DNA of 64,000 nt from Lophium mytilinum (taxonomy: Eukaryota), in the NCBI GenBank assembly GCA_010093605.1, contig MU004181.1, positions 2,046,001-2,110,000 of the forward strand, written 5' to 3'. This document shows, in pieces, positions 6,808 through 49,774 of the stretch. The position numbers and the translations under genes are program-made. The first letter of the stretch is position 1, and each line of letters begins with the position of its first letter. The notes under the pieces were generated by a model, which saw nothing but the letters and a program-made list of their open reading frames with translations, searched no databases and was not told the DNA's origin.

Positions 6808-8295
6808 AGAGCTTGGTGGGCAACTGTAAAGTATTACTGTAAGCGTCTGCAAGCTCTTACGGTTAGAAGAGAAGTTGAATAGCGCTTCAAAGTGCCTATT
6901 ATTAAAGGATAGGAACGATGCTGAAGCTCGTGAGTATTGATGAAAAGATTGAATAAAGACGACGATCCTTTGTTCAAAAACTGGTGATGAGAAGCACATT
7001 CCAAATCCGCTACCACTGAACTTCTATTGACGAATAGATGTTGAGAAGACTATGTTGATTGGCAGACGTCGAGTAGTCGGTGCTAGGTGGACCTTGAGCC
7101 CTTAGCATTTTTGATTTTTTGTTCGCATGGATTGGCTCTCCCCAATCCTCACGATCTACTCCGGATAGCACCAGAACTCTAGGGTAGGCGAATAGGTGAC
7201 CCCTGAAATTGCCTAACACTTCTACACTCCACGTTTCCACACTCCACTTTTTCGGCCTCTTTTAGTACTACCCATCGGCGTTTGCCAGGAGATGGGTGTC
7301 CCTTCACAGTTGTCTACTATGTCTGAAAGACTTCAACATCATTTTATAAATTCTAGGCAAAGCCGGCGTTCATCGTTCTGAACAGCCGCCAGAATCGCTG
7401 GGCCACCTTAGACGGCGGCATATAGCACTTTAAAACCATCAAGTTTCCCCAGTCCCCGACATTGAAACAGAACTGACTACACAGCCTATGAACTAGTCTG
7501 AGACGAGGCCTCAAACCAATTTAGACCAGTTTCAGCAAAACATGCACACGAAGAGCTTTCGTAACATGTTACTCGATCTACGACCCGGCTTCTTTTCTAA
7601 TCATTGAAGATTCCTTCTCCTGAGCCCGAGCACTGTACTCTTTCATACTCCCTTTACAGCGTTCTGCCAATGTTTGTGGTACTCTAAGGCGTTTTCGAAG
7701 ATCTGAATACGGTTCAAAGTGATCATTTTGAATGAAAGGTAAGCTCGGTGGGCCACCTCAAACGGCGGTATGAGCCTGTACACAAAATGGCTTCTTCGCA
7801 CTCACAACTTCGGCTTGTTTAGATGCCAGCAACTTGAGTGAATTGATGAGGGATGGATTGCGCTGGTCTATGCTGTCAAGATTCTGCAATTGCTTGAAGT
7901 ATCCATAAATGGATATTATAAATGAGTGCACGAATTTACAGATTTCTACCAGGACAGAAGTTTCATTCCATATTTTTCATACCGCTTGTAGTGTGTCAAC
8001 ATACAACTGCCAGGCTAGAGACGCGGGCATAGGTCCGATCTATCGACTCTTGTCTGCTACCGGCTGGAATAGCCCGGCAAGGTTTCAGGTCTGTCGAAAT
8101 GATGGAATAGAAGGTCTTTCTCGGTGGGGGGCGAAAGTTCTTCGAAGCCCTTCAAACGGTATCAAAGAGGTATAAGAGAGTTAATGCCCTAAGAAATCTT
8201 GATAGAGTGTAAATGTTGGATGTCGGCCACCTCCAAAGACTCTACACTTCTTTGATAAGAGTGAAACGTTAGAACCACGGTTTGATTGTCTTCGA

Positions 8296-8385
8296 CCTCC
8301 GGGTACCACAGAGTGATGTATGAGCCCGGCTATTGATAATCAGTACGTGTCGCAAGGACCCAAGGTACGACAAACACCCTTCCGA
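8296..8385 (-). repeat. Inverted partial copy of the tRNA-iMet locus at ~9110-9196
   Basis: Reverse complement reads ...TCCTTGCGACACGTACTGATTATCAATAGCCGGGCTCATACATCACTCTGTGGTACCCGGAGG, near-identical to 9134-9196. Confidence 0.9.
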
Positions 8386-8819
8386 AATCATAGACACGTC
8401 GTCATGTCAATGTTCTTTTCTTACTGCCAATCGGCATAATCCGCGTCAAAACCATCGCAGCGGCAATATGGCATATTTACGACATGGTAGCCGGTGGAAA
8501 AGGACGGGAAGGCTTCCTTGGACAAAGATTGGCGATCTAAGAATCTGTGTGCTACTCTAAAGTTGTCCGTACTTGAAGAAGACCGTGACACTCCTACTCA
8601 GGGCTTAGGTATTCTGTATGTGGCTAGCATCGCTGGAGGGCCGCTCGTATGCTATCAATATTTCGAAAACGACAGTTTTGACAAGCCTGATAGCTCGTCG
8701 GGCCACCTCCGACGGTGTCAGACCAGACTGCCACTTTGTGTTCCACAGATCCGCCTGATGGGTTGGTGGTTGGGTGTTCGCGTAGCGAGCCCGCAGTCGC
8801 ATGATTGCAAATTCTTGGC

Positions 8820-9522
8820 TCGTGAAACGCAACTTTGGGCAGCATACACCGGACAAATCCTGCACCTCGTATGATAATGAATTCGTAGCGGCCGATACCG
8901 GCCGGTCAATCATTGTGGGAGGTAATTGGCTCGGCCAATCGCCTTCCACAGTGTCCATTTTTACAGATATCGCTTTGTCACCGTGGAGCTGCAACGATAC
9001 TTATACAGGATGTTTCCTTGGCTCTTCAAAATCACCAGCTCAGTGGCGCAGCGGTAAGAATCAATTTCTGCCTTGAAACATTGCTCTTGCTAAGACTTAA
9101 TAGGAAGCGCGGTATGTTTATCCTACCTTTGGATCCTTGCGACACGTACTGATTATCAATAGCCGGGCTCATACATCACTATGTGGTACCCGGAGGCGAG
9201 TCTGTTGTCACGTGATTGTAAATATGCAGATGCTGTTTGTGAAATGCAACTTTGGGCAGCATACACCGGCCAATAATAGGATAAATACATACTGGTCGAG
9301 ATAGAACGCTCCTTGGGTATCGTTTTCTACCTCGTATGATAATAAATTTGTGCTGGCCGACACCGAGCGGCAGGGCGGACAATCATAGTCGGGTTAGTAG
9401 TAGCCGAACCAATCACTGCCCACACCGGCCACTTATGAAGATGTCGCTTTGTCAGATGTTTTTATCATAGTACTTATTCGTTTCTATTTCTGAGACACTT
9501 CAAATCACAAGCTCAATGGCGG
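8820..9522 (+). repeat. Local direct duplication (~8820-9050 vs ~9240-9522) of the tRNA upstream region; part also present at ~14950-15020
   Basis: Shared GTGAAAYGCAACTTTGGGCAGCATACACCGG, CCTCGTATGATAAT, TCGCTTTGTCA and AAATCAC(C/A)AGCTCA(G/A)TGGCG. Confidence 0.85.
9037..9196 (+). tRNA. tRNA-iMet(CAT) 5' two-thirds, split by two spliceosomal-type introns (9054-9103, 9112-9162) plus a canonical anticodon-loop intron (9174-9187); T arm and 3' acceptor strand not found locally (possible pseudogene)
   Basis: Joined exons give AGCTCAGTGGCGCAGCG+GAAGCGCG+CCGGGCTCATA+ACCCGGAGG, identical to the copy at 15020. Confidence 0.8.
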
Positions 9523-9589
9523 ATGATAGACTTGAGGAAATTCCCTGGGAAAAGAAACGTGGTGAGGAGTAGAGTATGTCCTGGAGACT

Positions 9590-9750
9590 CAGGTTGAGGT
9601 CGGCCTCAACCTACGCTAAACGCGCTTCAACTTACGCACTACGCAAACCTCAACCTACGCAAACCCTCACCCTGTACAAAGCTCAACCTACACAAAGCTC
9701 AACCTATACAGACCTCAACCTGTTCCCTTAACCTCAACCTACGAATACCT
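9590..9750 (+). repeat. Hairpin AGGTTGAGG-TCGG-CCTCAACCT followed by ~8 copies of a ~16-bp CCTCAACCTACGCAAA-like unit; resembles a transposon subterminal region
   Basis: Directly visible repeats. Confidence 0.75.
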
Positions 9751-9959
9751 TAAGTGCAGTCGCAAACTTTTAGAGCTTATTCCACCTGGCTATCGGCTTT
9801 TAGGCTCGATTAGGGGAGTCGACGTTAGTGAAGCTCAAAAGGAACCATCCTATGTTCTTCAAAGTCCCAATCCGGGCACCCTAACTTCGCCAGCTCAACT
9901 TATTCATTCAAGAACCCCCAGAGCTAGTCATACGTAGCAAAGCTAATAGAATCTATTCT

Positions 9960-10590
9960 CATCCACTGTGTAAATCCTCCAACGGCAGCGCTCCTCAGCC
10001 TTGCGAAGTCCTACCGACGAGCTTTTGACCCGGTCTTTCCTGGCTTTGTGTTATGAATTTTCCGGCTTTATAAATAATACCCCGAAGGATCCAGCCATCT
10101 ACATTCGATGCACGACGTGCGAATTACCCCCTCCCTTTCTGACAGACCTCGAGCTATGCCTTAACCTAGAATCCTTAATAGATTTCCTCTCATTCCCTCC
10201 ACTATTCCCTCCACTATTTCATCCATTCTTTTCTCCAGCGCCATCCCCCTGTGATGTTTCTCCAGTTCATTCCCCCCAATCTCTTTTCCTCTACCCTCTA
10301 TTTCTCTAACCCCTGTTCCTCTACCCTCTGTTTCTCTAACCCCTGTTCCTCTACCCTCTACTTCTCTGAGTCCTGTTCCTCAACCCTCTGTTCCTTTAGC
10401 CATCGTTCTTCTAGCAGTCGTTTCCTCTAGGTTTTCTCGCCTAGACTTGCTCACCTAGCCCTTTTTCTCTACCTACTTCCTCAAAGGCTTATTCCTCTAG
10501 CTCCGCACTTTTGCCTTTTTCGCACTCTTCTTCTCCGGCCATAATCCTCTAGCTTCTTTCCTCTTGCTTCTTTTCTCTGGCTTCCATACT
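9960..10590 (-). pseudogene. Stop-riddled (RIP-like) ORF relic with three 30-bp tandem repeats and a CxxC segment
   Basis: Purine-rich minus strand with many TAG/TAA where CAG/CAA would fit; repeat TTCCTCTACCCTCTRTTTCTCTAACCCCTG at ~10286-10390; one frame reads IRTSCIECRW. Confidence 0.4.
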
Positions 10591-11656
10591 ATATGGTCGT
10601 CTGTTCAGCTTCGTCCAACCATCCTAGCGCACCTGTCTTCTTGCATTATAGCCCTCCACCTCCAAGCAAGAGAGGTCCTTAATCATGAACTAGCCAAACC
10701 TTTATCCATCACTTCTACACTCCACTTTTCGGGGCCGCTGGAATCCCTATGATCAACTGGAACTGACCTTCACGGGCCCCATGCTTCTACAGGCACTCTT
10801 AAGTCAACCGATGTGCCCGAAAGCCAATCAAGTGGTCGATAGATTGTGTAGCAGATGACGCACGGACGGGTCGTTGATATTGCGACACACGTACACCGCT
10901 TTTTGAAGTTTTCGGTCCCCTCCTCCGACTCTCTTACCTCATTGTCTCTTCCAACTTCACCTCTCTAGCAACTCCTCAAGCTTCAACACATCCTCAGACC
11001 GCGCCTCATTTGTCGCTATTCATTAGCGTCTACCAGGAGATGAGCGTCGCTGTACACGTGTCCGCCACTGTGAGGGGCCTCGACACCGTTCAAACCCTCA
11101 GGACAAAGCCTGCGTCCCTCCGTTGAAAACCCGGTAAACTCGCCGCGCTAGCTCAGCCGGCGTTATGTGCCACTCGAAAACTAGGAAGTTTTCCCCATCG
11201 CAGATGTCTGGCTTTTGACCGACTGCACAGCCTTCAGACCAATCCGCCGGGGCTTCGAACCAGTTTGAGCTAGCTTCAGCAGCACGAAGATGGAGGGTCT
11301 TCATAACGTGTTACTCGATCTACGACGTAGCTTTATTTCTAGGCGGCATGCTCCCTCCTCCTAGGCCTGTGTGTGATTTCTTGCTACTGGTACGGGTGCT
11401 TCGACCATGCTCAACCAATCAGAACGAGATGTATGTAAATCGTTTGGGGCATTCTTTCTATCCGCTAAACCGCCTTAGACGACGCTATTTTGCTAAGAAC
11501 GAAACTATGGTGAAGACGAGGCGCTGTGGCATAGTTACGGCCGGTATGGGAAGATGGGGAAGGCACGATGCCGTGGGCCTCAACCACACTCCAACGCCAA
11601 CGTCTCTCCGTCTTCTTTAGACGTGATAACGCATCAACACTCATTTCATTCCCGAA

Positions 11657-13744
11657 ATGGCTGGCAAACGAGGGATGCCCACGGAAATCGAAGCTGGCCT
11701 CGTCGAAGACAGTAGCACGATCCGCAAGCCATTGAAGCGCAAGAAGAGCGGATCAGAGCTCGATCCTAGTAAGTGTCCCTTCAGACTCTAGCCTGACATA
11801 GCATTGCTAACGAAAGGCTCGTAGAAGGAAACCATAGGCGCGCCCGAGCCGAGCATCCTCCCTTCCTCGGACACACCTACGAAGCCGAAGGCGATCCTGA
11901 TGACAACTTCGACGAAGGCTCACTTGGTGATATTAGTGAAGCCCGTCATCTTCGACGAGACCAGCTTCAGACAAGTCTGCAGCAAGTAACACGTTCTTAC
12001 ACGCGCTCGGAATCTTTTCGCGCCGAAATCGAGGAGGAGGCGACGACTGTGCGCTCGTCTGGAAAGCAGCTTGTAACCAGTTTGAAGCCAGTGACTCGGT
12101 CTACCCCTACTTTATCCAATGGTATCAAGAAGACAATTAGCGAGTATCTGGCCGACTTTCTCGAGGAGCGAGATTTCACGGCGTCCTTGGAGCTTGGAAG
12201 AGACAGCCGTGTTCATATAACTCTGTCCTTTCCAAGCACGAGTATGAGCACAATCAGCCTGTTGCCACCGAAGGAGAGTACCAACAGTCAAGCTCTAACA
12301 TTCTTGCCACCAGTGGTCTCCACCGAGGTCGATCCTTGTAAAGTTGTTCCCTCAATCAAGGCGTTGACTGTAGAAGATGGTCTTAGACCCTTTGAAACGA
12401 TCGATGCTCCAACGTCTCTGTCCTTTACTACACCATCATCGAGGTCCCCGTTGGGAACCAAGGCACCTATCGCGAAACGTGGTAGAGGCAGACCCAAGAA
12501 GACAGAGGGAAGAAAGCCTGAAGTCTTAGTCGGGAATGCTCTCATTGGAGGCGAGGGGCTGGGACACGATATGGAGCTCTCTGGCAAGCTAATCGAGTCA
12601 CTTGATGAGACCATGTACTCGTACGACGAAGTCGCCAGCGGCTTTGGGAGTGCATTACTTACATACCCGTTACAAGCTACAGACTGGTCCGGGGGCATGC
12701 AAACTACCCTTGCCATGCCCAAGTCGATTTCAACTCCAGCGGCTCCTCTTTCTACGAAGACTTCGCGTACGGACGACGAGCTACTCGATCCTTGGGCGAA
12801 TTTCTCAGTCTTGAAACGCTACCAGATGGAACCGTCAGTCTTCTCGAATAAAGGCCGCTTTCGTCTTCCTTACCAACACCTCACGGAGAAATCTAAAGAG
12901 CTCCCCCAACCAACGAGAATCAGAAAGACACAGAGTAGGGTGCTGAGGAACAGAGACACCAACCAAATGGTTAAGATCGACTTGAGAGTGGTCTTTGTGG
13001 CTGCCGTAGAGGTCCATCCTATGTCGGCGACAAAGCGAATCATCATCGGATTCACGCGGGCAAGTGGCGAAGCACCAGCATATGGGACTCCTGGAATGAC
13101 TAAGCGGGCTGCTATGGCAGTCAAAGCATTCGCTGATCTGGACGGCGATGCAGGCGTGGTCAAAGTCGCTATACAAAGAACCAAAGTGAGCAGCCGTGCC
13201 TCTTTCTTCGATGACTCGCGCAAAGAGAGGACAGATGCCTATATCGTTGAGATGGTCGCTGTTCTCAACGCCGCCAAGAATGGAAGAGAGGTGGTCTTAC
13301 TTTCAGTTGGAGCGGACGGCTTCACGACGAACGTTGACAACTTTGTCTGGCTTGCAGAAACCTGGCCGCTCCTTGAGCTTAATTTGGTGGTTGTCGTACC
13401 CTCTTGGTTCCCCGGTGATAAGGCTGTATTCCGGGAAGCAACTAATGGTATTCGGTATGGGAGATTCTCTATCAAGCACGTTGCGGCAGCCGTCCTTCAA
13501 AAGGACAGGAGTGGCGCGGTCGGCGAATTACTGCGCGTGTGTGAACAGATCAATATGGGCAAAGAACAGTACGTTCCCCTTCTGTTTCTATGTCGTTCCT
13601 GGCTAATGTTACTATTGTAGCTTGGAGAACCGCCCTACCTTGACTACTATGACTTCCCATCGCTCAACCTTTCGAATTCATCCAGACACCGAGGACGACG
13701 ACGGCGTCGGCCCTGAGCTTCGCAAGTCTCGCGCCCGTCACTGA
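11657..13744 (+). CDS. AT-hook protein with a serine-recombinase(resolvase)-like C-terminal domain; exons 11657-11768, 11825-13568, 13621-13744
   Basis: Two GT-AG introns with GCTAAC/GCTAAT branch points keep the frame. KRGRGRPKK AT-hook. IIIGFTRASG...VSSR...VVLLSVGADGFTTN follows the resolvase GYxRVS...SG...DRLxR layout. Confidence 0.6.
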
Positions 13745-15019
13745 ACATACCACCATACTACTTGTCGCAGTTACCCTTGATCTCGATTACATCGAGTGAC
13801 ACGTTGTCCCCTTCATATGGCTTCAAACCGGTTTGAAGCAGAATACTCTCTGTACTCCTTGTGAGTAGCGTTTCAGTATCCCTAACCCCATTCTCGAAGC
13901 TAATCAAGTAACTTGATAGTTCCTTCACGAATCCCATACTGCCACTGCATACTCGTGCGATACTATCTCCATCGCGGAGCGCTCTCTGCGACTCGGCTTT
14001 TCGGAGATCTTATCTTTGCCCTCAAACCGGTTCGTGACAAGATGCGGATGTATTTTCTGTCTCCCTTGACTAATTGCTCATAGACAGGGATGTCTTTTCA
14101 CTTTCGGCGCTTGCGAGGCTTGTGGCGCCTATTTCGTACCCCTCTATTCATTATATCAGAACCTCAACACGACAAATCGACAATTTCAAAGCTTTTCAAA
14201 TCCTCGAATATGCGTTATCTCTCGCGCCCAGCATCCCGGATAGACCAAACGTCCCTCCTTGCTATATTCAACCCTTTTGAGGATATATGCAGCGAGTGAT
14301 GGACTGTCAGGGTGGTCCTACTGAACTTTGTTAAGATAATGTCTTTACAGACTAGTCTGTAGAAAGTAATCACGACTTAGCGTTACACAGCAACATGTAT
14401 CCTGATCAAAATACAATCGTGTCATAAATATGAATGTCGCTTTCAATTCCTCAGGGGTGCACTTATTCACCACTGTTCGCAGCGCCTTTCAAAGCAGTGT
14501 GAGAGATTATGATGTGACCCTGAAGTTTCGACGGCGAGAGTTAGCCCTGGACGAGAAGTAGTTCTTGGAGCTGTTAAAGCTATTGTTTGGGGTGCTTTGG
14601 GCCGTCCTGAGTCATGGAAATGTAACGTTTGATGATTGATGTTCAAATCAGGCTTTGCGGAGTTGAGATAGATGCAAGAACGTGAATCACCTGACTGCTG
14701 ATGTTCTAGGTGAGTTGTCACTTTTCAGGTAGGATTTGGAGCCCCCGGGCACCGTTCTAGTAATCAGGTTTGTGAGCGTGTTCGTTGAATATACTAATGA
14801 TACAGTAAGTAGCTACAGGATGTACCAGCTTCAAACTAGTATCAAGGTCCGAGAGCCAAGAATCGAGCTATGGATTTTGAAGTGCCGGCCGACATCGGCA
14901 TGAGCGCCGAACCGAACATTTAGGATATAGCCCACGCCCCACTAATACGAATATCGCTTTGTCACAGTAAATTGAGTAGGTACTTATAAGAGATAATTTC
15001 TTGGCTCTCCAAAATCATC

Positions 15020-15154
15020 AGCTCAGTGGCGCAGCGGAAGCGCGCCGGGCTCATATACAATATGTGCTACCCGGAGGACTGCGGTAAGTCAGCGTCTAAA
15101 TTTGGAGTTCGAATCCCACTAAGACCATATCAGGATCGAAACCGCACTGAGCTA
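15020..15154 (+). tRNA. Initiator tRNA-Met(CAT) with a canonical intron (15056-15068) and a 50-nt spliceosomal-type intron in the T stem (15084-15133)
   Basis: Spliced form AGCTCAG TG GCGC AGCGGAA GCGC G CCGGG CTCATAA CCCGG AGGAC TGCGG ATCGAAA CCGCA CTGAGCT A = 72 nt, all four stems fully paired. A1-U72, ATCGAAA T loop and GGG/CCC anticodon stem are initiator hallmarks. T tracts follow. Confidence 0.92.
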
Positions 15155-15272
15155 GATCGCATTATACTTTTTGCATTTCTTTTTCTCCCGAGGTGTTTTC
15201 AAGTCCTTTTTTTTCTCATCTTTTTGCTCTCTTGCTTTATTATGACTGGTCTTTTTGACTTCTTCTTGGTTC

Positions 15273-15397
15273 ACTGCGGATCGAAACCGCACTGAGCTAT
15301 TCTAGCATTCTTTTTGCTTTTTAGATGTTCTTTTGGTCTTCTCTAGGCTTGTGGGCGCCCTACGAAGGGTGGCGAGCTATCGAAACCACACTGAGCT
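15273..15397 (+). repeat. Two extra copies of the tRNA-iMet 3' end (15273-15299 intact and intronless; 15379-15397 degenerate)
   Basis: ACTGCGGATCGAAACCGCACTGAGCTA and ATCGAAACCACACTGAGCT, each followed by T-rich sequence. Confidence 0.9.
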
Positions 15398-16683
15398 GAA
15401 TCTCGTCACTCTTCTAGCATTTTCTCTCATTCCAGGGCGCTCCCAACATCCTGGCAGCTTCATCTTTTTGTTTCTGTTGCGTTATTGCTTTATGACTAGC
15501 CCTTGCGAATTTTTTTGTGGGTTCGTAGGCGGGGCATTCCTGAGTGCGGGACCCCCACCATGAATGCCACCACACGCGAACTGACAACTTTAGCATTACA
15601 AAACACTTCGAACATTTTCTTCGAGGGTATTGGAAGAAGTTCGAGCTATAATTATGGTATACGGGAATGGCTTATAGCATCAACTTTTGAAGTGATGTTT
15701 ATAACTTCAATTTCGCTCCCCGGGAGTCATTTGGCACGCAACCTGTACACTGTTCCTTACAGTGTATGTACATCCGCAAGGCCGAACATTCCTCATATTT
15801 TCATATCAACTATCTGAATAGGCCCAAATGTTCATGGCTAGTGTGCAGTTCAGATGAGAATAATCTAAAGTAGCAATTTTCCAGCGCCTAGCTATTTATT
15901 TCTCCACCCTCCAACATCCCTCTTCGGGTATTGGGAGTGCTCGATACGCCGTTAGTCCGTGAATTAACTACGCTCAACATCTGAAAGATCATCCACAAGT
16001 CTACATGCAGGTGCCGCTGTCTGTAGTGGCCTGGTAACCTGATCGATTGTTCAAAAAGGCTCACTTCTGCCTGGATTTGAACTTTGAAAATTCATTGGCG
16101 CACTTCAGACGGTGTCAGACAAGTGTACATATTTATCTCCGAATGTAGGAGAAAGAAGTCGCTCCCAGCTTGAGATTGCGAGTCATCGCGAGTTTTATGA
16201 GGGTTTTAGAGTGCCCAACGCTCTCTGTCCATTCTCTAGATTTGTGCATGCCAAAAATCATTAATCCAATAGCACAATAGCTTCCTGATTTGCATGTGAG
16301 CCATGACGCACAGCCATCAACCCCTCAGGGACCCACAGGGGCAGTTGAAAAACAGATGAGAGCTCAATATTCTCTCCTATAAATAGGTGAATCGACATAG
16401 TATCGTGGCATATGTAAGTAGTGCAAACGATCATTCGCTCTGCCCGAGTTTCGATCTTGGTTCACTCAAAGAAACCGACTCTACGGCGGAGCGCAATCTT
16501 GGAATAGAACCTTGAGGCTAGATCCAGACATGCCAAGCCTGTGTTCAATTCAAGGGTGCGAACACAGCTGGATATATCAGGGTCCAAGATATTTGTAGAA
16601 TACAAATTCGTCCTTTACTGCGATCTAAGTCGTGGTCGTGATGCTCGATTACAGAATTTGGACTTGACACTGGGTTCTCGAGT

Positions 16684-16732
16684 TGACTTACCGCAGCCTT
16701 CCGGGTAGCACATAGCGTATATGAGCCTGGCG
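16684..16732 (-). repeat. Inverted partial copy of tRNA-iMet 15043-15091
   Basis: Reverse complement CGCCAGGCTCATATACGCTATGTGCTACCCGGAAGGCTGCGGTAAGTCA. Confidence 0.9.
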
Positions 16733-17438
16733 ATGTTATGATCAGAGAGGACGTAGAGTAAGAGAGCTACCTGAAAAGCTTTGATACCTAGCCCAACGAG
16801 CTGTTGAAGATGACGAAGTAGCCCTGGGTCGCAGTGACCTTAGAACCTTGGAGCCACCCCACAACCCCTCAGCCGGCAGCCGAGCGCCTCTGGAGCTCGT
16901 CGCCCACCTGTCATCCGTCGCCCATCACCCGCCGTCTGCCTGTCTGTCGCTTCTGCAGTCCATTCTTTGCCTAACCGTAAACTTTCCACCGTGACGATCT
17001 GTCGGAACTTCTCCCCTCGCGCCCTCTCTCTACGACCTCGCGTGCCCAACGAACCAGCCAGCGCACTCCAACACGTCACCCGCGGCAAGACACCCAGTCG
17101 CAGCCAGGACGCAGAGGATATCAGCCTGAAAGAAAAGCTATCTAAGCTGTCGGCGTCCGCCTGGGGCACTTGAGTAGCCGGTAGACTGCTGCCACGACAC
17201 GCTGTGAGCCGCATTCATTACCGCCACAAGCTCCGTCTCGTCTTCACCACCACACCACGCACAACGACTAACTGGCTAGGATTCACATCATAGCCCTGAT
17301 ACCCCCGAAACCTCTGCGCCATCCCGCTCGAGAAAACCAGACGCCTTCCCTGCACATCAGCGCGTTCGCCAGACCGATCTCTTTCCCTCCTTGTCCACTG
17401 CTGCATATCAGCTATCCACTCATCCTCCGGAACTCGCC

Positions 17439-20321
<2,883 letters not shown>

Positions 20322-48372: not shown

Positions 48373-49774
48373 ATGGCTTCCAGCGCTCCAGGTGAGCTCG
48401 AGTACCACCCTGCAATCTCCTATTCAGGCATTAATCGAGAGGCAGAACGCAGTCGTGTGTTCTTCGATATTCAGATCGGCAATCAAGAGGTCGGCAGGGT
48501 AGCTTTTGAGCTGGTAAGCTGTCCCTCAGCACGTTTGATTGCATATCCAATTACTAAGACTCGCACAGTACAATGACAGTGAGAACAAACCTCCCCTCCC
48601 TCCACAGACTCGATCTGACCCGCAATGCAGTCGTCCCCAAAACCGCGGAGAACTTCCGCGCCCTATGCACCGGCGAGAAAGGCATTGGCAAATCTGGCAA
48701 GCCGCTACACTTCAAGGGCTCTGGATTCCACCGAGTCATAAAGCAGTTCATGATCCAGGGCGGTGATTTCACCATGGGTAATGGCACGGGAGGAGAGTCC
48801 ATATACGGGGAAAAATTCGAGGACGAGAACTTCGCCCTGAAGCACGAGAAGCCCTTCCTGCTATCCATGGCGAATGCAGGCCCAGGTAAAGTTAAACAAC
48901 GGAGTCCGGGTATCTTCTACTTACCAGGCTGCAGGCACCAACGGCTCGCAGTTCTTCGTTACTACGGTCCCAACACCCCACCTAGACAAGAAGCACGTCG
49001 TCTTTGGCGAAGTCATCAGCGGCAAGAGCATCGTGCGGCAGATTGAGAATCTCAATACCCACAATGGTGACAAGCCCGTCGCGGACGCCACAATTATCGG
49101 TACATTGATACCCCACTCCAACTACCTAAGTGCACAGACTTTGCTCTAACACACTCCTAGACTGCGGCGAGCTCAAAGGCGCCGACTACACCAAGTGCAC
49201 TGAAAAGACGCCTGACTCTACCGGCGACCCCTTCGAGGACTACCCCGAAGACCAGGCCACGCCGGAAAAGGAGCTCACGGGCGCCGAAATCGTGAAAATC
49301 GCTTCCACTCTCAAGGACCTTGGCAACACCGCTTTCAAAGCCGGCAAACTGAAGCTCGGGCTCGCAAAGTACCAAAAGGGGCTCCGCTACTTGCACGAGT
49401 ACCCGGAACCGCTCGACTCGGACCCCCCGGAGCTGGGCAAGCAGCTGTCGGCGCTGAAGTTCAGTCTGCACAACAATTCAGCTCTCATGCAGTACAAGCT
49501 GCACGACTACGTCAGCGCGGATTCCAGCGCGACCAAGGCGCTCGAGGTACCGGGCGCGACGAAGGCGGAGAAGGGCAAGGCGTACTTCCGGCGCGCGCTG
49601 GCCCGGGCGAGCAAGAAGAACGATGAGGAGGCGGTTGCGGATCTCGAGGCTGCGGCGAAGTGCGTGCCTGGTGATGTGGCGGTAGCGAAGGAGCTCAAGG
49701 TTGTGAAGGATCGACTGGTGGAGCGGAAGAAGAGGGAGAAGGCGGCGTACAAGAACGCGTTCAACTTTGATTGA
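48373..49774 (+). CDS. CPR6: Cyclophilin-40 / PPIase D (cyclophilin + TPR), multi-intron with a 10-nt micro-exon
   Basis: [40 protein letters not shown]-terminal TPR helices. Confidence 0.95.

Follow-up and report, generated by a model that had tools for sequence, protein, structure and literature searches.

Can a tRNA gene be interrupted by an intron of the mRNA type and still give a working tRNA? This question is raised by a tRNA-Met gene on the plus strand at 15020-15154 of a 64,000-nt stretch of Lophium mytilinum DNA (assembly GCA_010093605.1, contig MU004181.1, positions 2,046,001 to 2,110,000), hereafter called the window. The gene is built from the following parts:

15020-15154, plus strand: tRNA-Met gene with two inserts of different kinds.
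15020-15055, plus strand: exon 1, mature nt 1-36 (acceptor 5' strand, D arm, anticodon stem 5' strand), ending at 15055 in the anticodon loop with the base following CAT.
15056-15068, plus strand: tRNA-type intron of 13 nt at the canonical 37/38 site, called by ARAGORN after removal of the 50 nt.
15069-15083, plus strand: exon 2, mature nt 37-51 (anticodon stem 3' strand, variable loop, T-stem bases 1-4).
15084-15133, plus strand: spliceosomal-type intron of 50 nt between T-stem positions 52 and 53.
15134-15154, plus strand: exon 3, mature nt 52-72 (last T-stem 5' base, T loop ATCGAAA, T-stem 3' strand, acceptor 3' strand), ending at 15154 with the discriminator A.

The gene was spliced in silico by excision of the coordinates, and ARAGORN was run on the product. 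With both inserts out, ARAGORN confirmed what an earlier sequence-only reading of the window had claimed, a 72-nt initiator tRNA-Met in which every stem is paired: a tRNA-Met(CAT) was called with stems of 7+4+5+5 pairs, all of them Watson-Crick. In the ARAGORN drawing the first pair is A1:T72, the anticodon stem has three G:C pairs at its foot, the T loop reads ATCGAAA and the discriminator is A. We take a eukaryotic initiator tRNA to be marked by A1:U72, by three G:C pairs that adjoin the anticodon loop, and by A54 and A60 in the T loop. On sequence grounds, the spliced 15020-15154 has the intact structure of a eukaryotic initiator tRNA-Met gene, and only after both inserts are removed. The 13-nt insert pairs with the anticodon loop in predicted folds, and its 3' part, TATGTG, is common to the paralogues described below. 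Its site, shortness and anticodon-loop pairing fit a tRNA-type intron, which would be cut by the SEN endonuclease.

The uncut gene is overlooked or mis-called by the tools that were run on it. No gene was reported by default ARAGORN and no match by Rfam at gathering score in the window, which bears out for these two tools the earlier expectation that scanners would miss it. The Rfam tRNA model reached 15.9 bits on the gene against a cut-off of 29, and it was aligned to a T-loop-like motif within the 50-nt intron. ARAGORN with long introns permitted gave a wrong chimaera, 15020-15299, with a 208-nt 'intron'. A comparison before and after excision had been proposed; run with ARAGORN, it yielded no tRNA from the uncut 135 nt and a tRNA-Met(CAT) once the 50 nt were excised, when the 13-nt intron was found unaided.

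What kind of insert is then located in the T stem? The 50 nt at 15084-15133 start with GTAAGT, contain a CTAAG branch motif whose A lies 11 nt from the 3' end, and finish with CAG. The lengths of six other RNA-confirmed introns nearby, namely five of a neighbouring gene and the one at 15544-15593, cover 48-59 nt and their branch-to-end distances 9-16 nt, and the insert falls inside both ranges. The last base of CTAAG is off the consensus (CTRAY), as it is in an intron of a cyclophilin gene at 48514-48568 (55 nt, GTAAGC..CTAAG..CAG), the removal of which together with a second intron restores the cyclophilin reading frame. The claim that this branch variant and a similar size recur in an mRNA intron of the window has thus held up. 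A liberal intron definition was also applied (GTNNGT, CTRA 9-16 nt from the end, YAG). A random 50-mer of the same base composition fits it with p ~7e-6, and 19 of the 1,342,635 start/length pairs in the window fit it, real introns included, so that chance resemblance is negligible. By its splice sites, branch motif and length, the insert would be assigned to the U2-type GT-AG introns.

The T-stem intron also holds a B-box- or T-loop-like element, GTTCGAATCC, at 15107-15116 on the plus strand. With both strands of the 64-kb window counted, the pattern GTTCGANNCC has four matches where 1.96 would be expected, and GTTCGAATCC, the motif to which the Rfam tRNA model was aligned, is one of them. 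The idea that this intron arose from the 3' part of its own gene, by copying and decay, was considered and dropped as unconvincing: the local alignment score of 9 was reached by 90 of 2000 shuffles, and control introns scored up to 8.

Is the 50-nt insert removed in RNA? Three public sequencing runs were compared as assembled contigs over positions 8000-17000 of the window. Two of them, X1 and X2, are DNA and probably the data from which the window derives, and the third, X3, was taken as RNA from its joints. X3 has eight joints, all with GT..AG or CT..AC ends, of which five are introns of the neighbouring gene, and none of the eight is present in X1 or X2. In some bins over which the depth of the DNA runs stays even, that of X3 falls to 0-0.4. 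X3 therefore behaves as a transcriptome. One X3 contig (468 nt, depth 15.9) carries a joint from 15082 to 15133 that skips 50 nt, with 55 nt on its 5' side and 411 nt on its 3' side, up to 15543. Given a 1-nt shift allowed by a repeated G, this joint is exactly the GT..AG insert 15084-15133. X1 and X2 keep the 50 nt and cover the locus with 0 differences. No joint or gap is listed across the 55-nt 5' side of the X3 contig, and the 13-nt intron is therefore apparently retained in the RNA. The partly spliced precursor proposed from the sequence, in which TGCG is joined to GATCG and the 13-nt intron is apparently kept, is thus present as an X3 contig and absent from X1 and X2. The 50-nt intron is removed in RNA at its exact borders, in a strain that differs from the strain of the X1 and X2 DNA, and the spliceosome is presumably the remover. 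The X3 contigs leave 14796-15027 uncovered and none carries unspliced 15084-15132; neither gap is evidence either way.

The same comparison bears on three other explanations. The first is a DNA polymorphism, in which the genome of the X3 strain would simply be without the 50 nt. X3 is filed under another organism label than X1 and X2, which leaves room for this. However, the skipped piece is GT..AG-ended like the other seven joints of X3, five of which are introns of the neighbouring gene, and the listed pieces of X3 have 0 other letters, the sole differences listed being a TT indel within a T-run and a single letter at position 8716. We regard the polymorphism as very unlikely. The second, chance resemblance or an assembly artefact, we consider negligible, given two DNA runs with 0 differences at the locus, the chance value of ~7e-6 per insert and an RNA joint at exactly the intron borders.

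The third is an intron of the archaeal or red-algal type, cut by the tRNA endonuclease at a bulge-helix-bulge. Introns of this type are not known to us from fungi. The locus has the full set of spliceosomal signals at the spacing and size typical of local introns, and X3 RNA apparently keeps the true tRNA-type intron and is without the 50 nt. The minimum-energy fold of the uncut gene displays no bulge-helix-bulge at the borders of the 50 nt, which is weak evidence as no formal search was made. What speaks for such an intron is the precedent of D-arm and T-arm tRNA introns in Cyanidioschyzon merolae, as described in the available parts of PMC9602550 and PMC3728597, and we hold it to be slightly less probable still than the polymorphism. 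The locus 15020-15154 is best explained as holding two kinds of intron, one of 13 nt of the tRNA type and a genuine spliceosomal one of 50 nt. The observation is confirmed as real and unusual.

Which polymerase makes the RNA that carries the joint? The joint contig stops neither at the tRNA end nor at the T5-T8 runs beyond it and extends towards a gene for an Snf1 kinase, and two features downstream are needed here:

15155-16824, plus strand: downstream stretch covered by RNA (X3 contigs 15133-15543 and 15594-16824).
15168-15172, plus strand: first T5 run, resembling a polymerase III terminator, 14 nt past the tRNA end.

Polymerase III stops at such T-runs. Because the RNA passes them, the carrier is better explained as made by polymerase II, be it as a non-coding RNA or as a long leader, and it looks like a polymerase II product rather than a short pre-tRNA. 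The stretch 15155-16824 holds short open reading frames only. It contains a second joint, from 15543 to 15594 (GT..AG, depth 3, side 30), which defines the intron 15544-15593. Directly downstream of the tRNA-containing RNA, the Snf1/AMPK-type protein kinase gene lies at 17439-20321 on the plus strand with several introns, and the C-terminal part of its product matches AdenylateSensor clusters of Ascomycota. The tRNA-containing RNA may be a long leader or a regulator of this gene. The second intron is itself somewhat peculiar: it is 50 nt long (GTGCGG..CTGAC..TAG), with an unusual 5' site, GTGCGG, and comes from one low-depth contig.

The signals for polymerase III appear intact at the DNA level. 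By the usual consensus sequences, an A-box-like TGGCGCAGCGG is located at 15027-15037 in exon 1 and a B box, GGATCGAAACC, at 15133-15143. The first G of the B box is the last base of the intron, so the box is intact in DNA. The two boxes are ~95 nt apart owing to the two introns. No run of four or more T occurs within 15020-15154, and the first T5 follows shortly after the gene. A lack of T-runs in the inserts of the gene family was tried as a sign of polymerase III transcription and dropped, as confirmed mRNA introns mostly lack them likewise (1/5 has T4).

Is the gene maintained as a tRNA gene? The window contains a number of further initiator-tRNA pieces, several of them decayed:

8296-8376, minus strand: inverted partial copy of the second copy, with most of its insert B and the anticodon arm.
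9037-9196, plus strand: second copy, a partial paralogue with mature nt 1-45, which then breaks off; no T arm follows.
9054-9103, plus strand: insert A of the second copy, 50 nt in the D loop, GTAAGA..CTAAG..TAG.
9112-9162, plus strand: insert B of the second copy, 51 nt between positions 26 and 27, GTATGT..CTGAT..TAG.
9174-9187, plus strand: tRNA-type intron of the second copy, 14 nt.
9510-9521, plus strand: head stub, conserved flank and first 12 tRNA nt with one mismatch.
15273-15299, plus strand: orphan intron-less tail, mature nt 46-72, 27/27 identical to the exons of the main gene.
15378-15398, plus strand: decayed third 3' piece with 3 mismatches in 21.
16437-16456, minus strand: decayed piece with initiator-type T loop and acceptor 3' part, ~230 nt downstream of the next fragment on the minus strand.
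16684-16732, minus strand: decayed fragment with the anticodon arm and its 13-nt intron, the T-stem 5' strand and the intron start.

The second copy is identical to the main gene in 45/45 exon positions, as against 64/92 in the upstream flank and 10/14 in the tRNA-type intron. Exons of 45/45 beside flanks of ~70% therefore argue for long constraint on the tRNA sequence. The fragment at 16684-16732 is 44/49 identical to the main gene and carries the first eight nt, GTAAGTCA, of the T-stem intron. Read from the alignment with the second copy and the orphan tail as outgroups, the three exonic differences between them are all on the side of the fragment. The tail piece at 16437-16456 gave a local alignment score of 11, which was reached by 3 of 1000 shuffles. 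No T arms were found downstream of the second copy, the inverted copy or the fragment 16684-16732, where 905, 264 and 331 of 1000 shuffles reached the score. In the DNA runs, the inverted copy at 8296-8376 has a 47-nt unitig of double depth. In X3, the bin 8903-9203 over the second copy has a depth of 0.28 and no joint is listed for insert A or insert B; with such scant cover it is no evidence either way.

Mature nt 45 is the last of the second-copy head and nt 46 the first of the orphan tail; the two pieces, each perfectly conserved, lie on the same strand and in the right order, 6076 nt apart. A split tRNA made from 9037-9196 and 15273-15299, held together by pairing of trailer and leader, was considered and rejected for want of support: the duplex energy was reached by 200 of 300 shuffles, and canonical splice sites are absent from the ends.

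All three GT-AG-type inserts of the family are preceded by exonic GCG (9053/9054, 9111/9112 and 15083/15084). A preceding trinucleotide shared by three random junctions has p = 0.0017, and the nearby RNA-confirmed mRNA introns have no GCG context. The common context hints at a common insertion mechanism. The inserts themselves resemble one another no better than shuffled sequences do: the score is reached by 88, 93 and 49 of 500 shuffles. A sensitive BLAST of the three inserts against the 64-kb window for introner-like copies found only the paralogue of insert B.

The flanks upstream of the three heads (14950-15019, 8967-9036 and 9441-9509) share the blocks ATRTCGCTTTGTCA, TACTTAT and CAAATCA, the last adjoining the start of the tRNA, with diverged sequence between the blocks. 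A longer block, TTGGCTCTYCAAAATCAYC, is common to the main gene and the second copy only. These conserved blocks are possible promoter elements. One of the three shared blocks is TATA-like and invariant in the three-way flank alignment:

14981-14988, plus strand: TATA-like block TACTTATA, 31-39 nt before the tRNA 5' end.

The TATA-like block is a candidate for a promoter role, and the carrier RNA may start downstream of it, near the tRNA 5' end.

Does the locus, then, still supply initiator tRNA? Another explanation is an exonised relic, in which the intron would be spliced only within a polymerase II non-coding RNA or the Snf1 leader, and the tRNA would come from ordinary genes elsewhere. Several points speak for a relic and weigh against supply from this locus. 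The joint RNA runs past the tRNA end and the T5-T8 runs to a second spliced intron, and the carrier would be >1.7 kb long and read through many T-runs if the contigs are joined. The tRNA sequence may be no more than an exon of this carrier, whether the latter is a non-coding RNA or a long leader of the Snf1 mRNA. The locus is littered with dead heads and tails, and the main copy could be one that was recently disabled. The paralogue with two other inserts, from which the 45/45 argument comes, is itself truncated. Perfect conservation is no proof of tRNA function, because the orphan tail, which is no tRNA alone and whose flanks match in 17/25 columns, is as perfectly kept (27/27) as the gene. 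Finally, neither an end-processed precursor nor a mature tRNA was seen among the contigs of the one transcriptome-like run. The joint is supported by a single contig, and a contig is not proof of a single molecule.

On the other side, the gene keeps every one of its 21 base pairs as well as the initiator marks, whereas dead pieces nearby have decayed (3/21, 5/49 and 1/12 differences). The exons are kept at 45/45 against ~70% in the flanks, the polymerase III signals are intact, and three separate GT-AG inserts in a small family call for a tRNA-linked reason. We regard the relic as quite possible, though on balance doubtful. Supply of initiator tRNA from the locus appears to us to be an evenly balanced matter.

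If the gene is productive, maturation may proceed in four steps. The spliceosome would first rebuild the T arm, which would make folding of the cloverleaf possible. The tRNA would next be released by RNase P and RNase Z, and the 13-nt intron would be taken out by SEN and tRNA ligase. The production of initiator tRNA from this gene would then be dependent on the spliceosome. The sequence-only reading, which foresaw a need for both the spliceosome and SEN, is supported in part; it did not take in the long carrier RNA, the cluster of initiator-tRNA pieces or the two further inserts of the second copy. A parallel polymerase III route is possible because the A box, the B box and the T5 terminator are intact in DNA, and it would resemble that of the spliced U6 snRNA of fission yeast. 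A more detailed proposal adds an origin to this scheme. Initiator tRNA would be made via the spliceosome, mRNA-type introns at no fewer than three sites after GCG (D loop, 26/27, T stem) would have been gained by reverse splicing into the abundant initiator tRNA or its polymerase II transcript, and the working copy would be expressed as the 5' end of a transcript made by polymerase II, which would undergo splicing first, next cutting by RNase P and RNase Z, and lastly cutting by SEN. This combination as a whole we consider unlikely.

How does the gene compare with known systems? In the literature searched, which was mostly outside subscription journals, we found no tRNA gene for which a spliceosomal intron has been reported. 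The known introns of tRNA genes are of three kinds: endonuclease-cut, group I and group II. RNase P and RNase Z cut MALAT1 mascRNA, a tRNA-like RNA, from a transcript of polymerase II, and the trypanosome tRNA-Sec is made by polymerase II. Both are precedents for a step that the working model requires, the freeing of a tRNA, or of a body resembling one, from an RNA made by polymerase II. Unlike the gene in Lophium, neither has a spliceosomal intron in the tRNA body, and mascRNA is not a decoding tRNA.

Closer parallels are found in small nuclear RNA (snRNA) genes. The U6 gene of Schizosaccharomyces pombe and the U1, U2 and U5 genes of Rhodotorula hasegawae resemble the present gene: each is a small stable-RNA gene that has promoter elements of the polymerase III type and is interrupted by a spliceosomal intron. 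Frendewey et al. reportedly described in 1990, to go by the title, a B-box match inside the fission-yeast U6 introns. The likeness here is GTTCGAATCC in the T-stem intron, although the tRNA gene, in contrast to U6 of S. pombe, already has its own B box. A tRNA has no place close to the spliceosome's active site, and reverse splicing into a spliceosome component, as considered for the snRNA cases, is therefore not directly transferable. The present RNA also differs from those cases in being long and polymerase II-like, and the same gene has a second intron of the tRNA type.

As far as the accessible text of PMC5855946 goes, spliceosomal introns are present in U6, U2, U5 and U1 snRNA genes and in rRNA genes, and the determinants of insertion into non-coding RNAs are called unclear. 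This and the negative literature search agree with the background given in the sequence-only reading, where such introns were said to be described in U6 snRNA and rRNA genes and were not known from tRNAs. The rRNA introns of (mostly lichen-forming) ascomycetes treated in the same text are alike in that the host is a structural-RNA gene not normally transcribed by polymerase II. That host is made by polymerase I, whereas here direct RNA evidence of removal is accompanied by cover of the polymerase II type. The string 'spliceosom' is absent from the accessible text of PMC4090602 and PMC4033280, two reviews of tRNA introns and tRNA-gene diversity. In the accessible part of a 2025 preprint (10.1101/2025.06.17.660180), spliceosomal and tRNA introns are treated as unrelated classes. 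The tRNA genes of Cyanidioschyzon merolae, nucleomorphs and Archaea are interrupted outside 37/38, sometimes several times per gene, and are missed by scanners, according to those parts of the sources that are available. Their introns are cut by the tRNA endonuclease at a bulge-helix-bulge, in contrast to the GT-AG ends, branch motif and local mRNA-intron size found here. A loose pattern scan of metagenomes (GTNNGT after T-stem position 52) found an initiator-type D arm in 0/117 of the matches listed; among the same matches, one of 117 (L114) has a T-loop-like 10-mer only.

What would follow from such a gene? Given RNA evidence that the intron is removed, the tRNA would be a new host class for spliceosomal introns, and two unrelated splicing machines would act in turn on the product of a single gene. 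Three insertions in one family, all of them after GCG, bear on how spliceosomal introns enter non-coding RNA genes, and the carrier bears on whether polymerase II can feed tRNA production in fungi. Genes of this kind would be invisible to standard tRNA finders, so that the counts of fungal initiator tRNA genes may be too low. If the genome were without any uninterrupted copy, translation initiation would be coupled to splicing capacity.

Some further observations were made in the compared stretch. A 171-nt CT..AC joint of X3 at 14519-14690 on the minus strand is located in the same contig as the 3' end of a plus-strand gene at 10916-14518, and suggests an opposite-strand transcript between this gene and the tRNA locus. 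At 15206, X3 has two extra T within a long T-run, the sole indel listed in the compared stretch. A short repeat at 8667-8747 recurs on numerous further contigs, both in the DNA runs and in X3; its bin has many loose ends and a depth of ~780-805 against ~150-170 elsewhere, and it is probably a dispersed element. The letter difference at 8716 lies inside this multi-copy repeat and is also present in part of the depth of the DNA runs.
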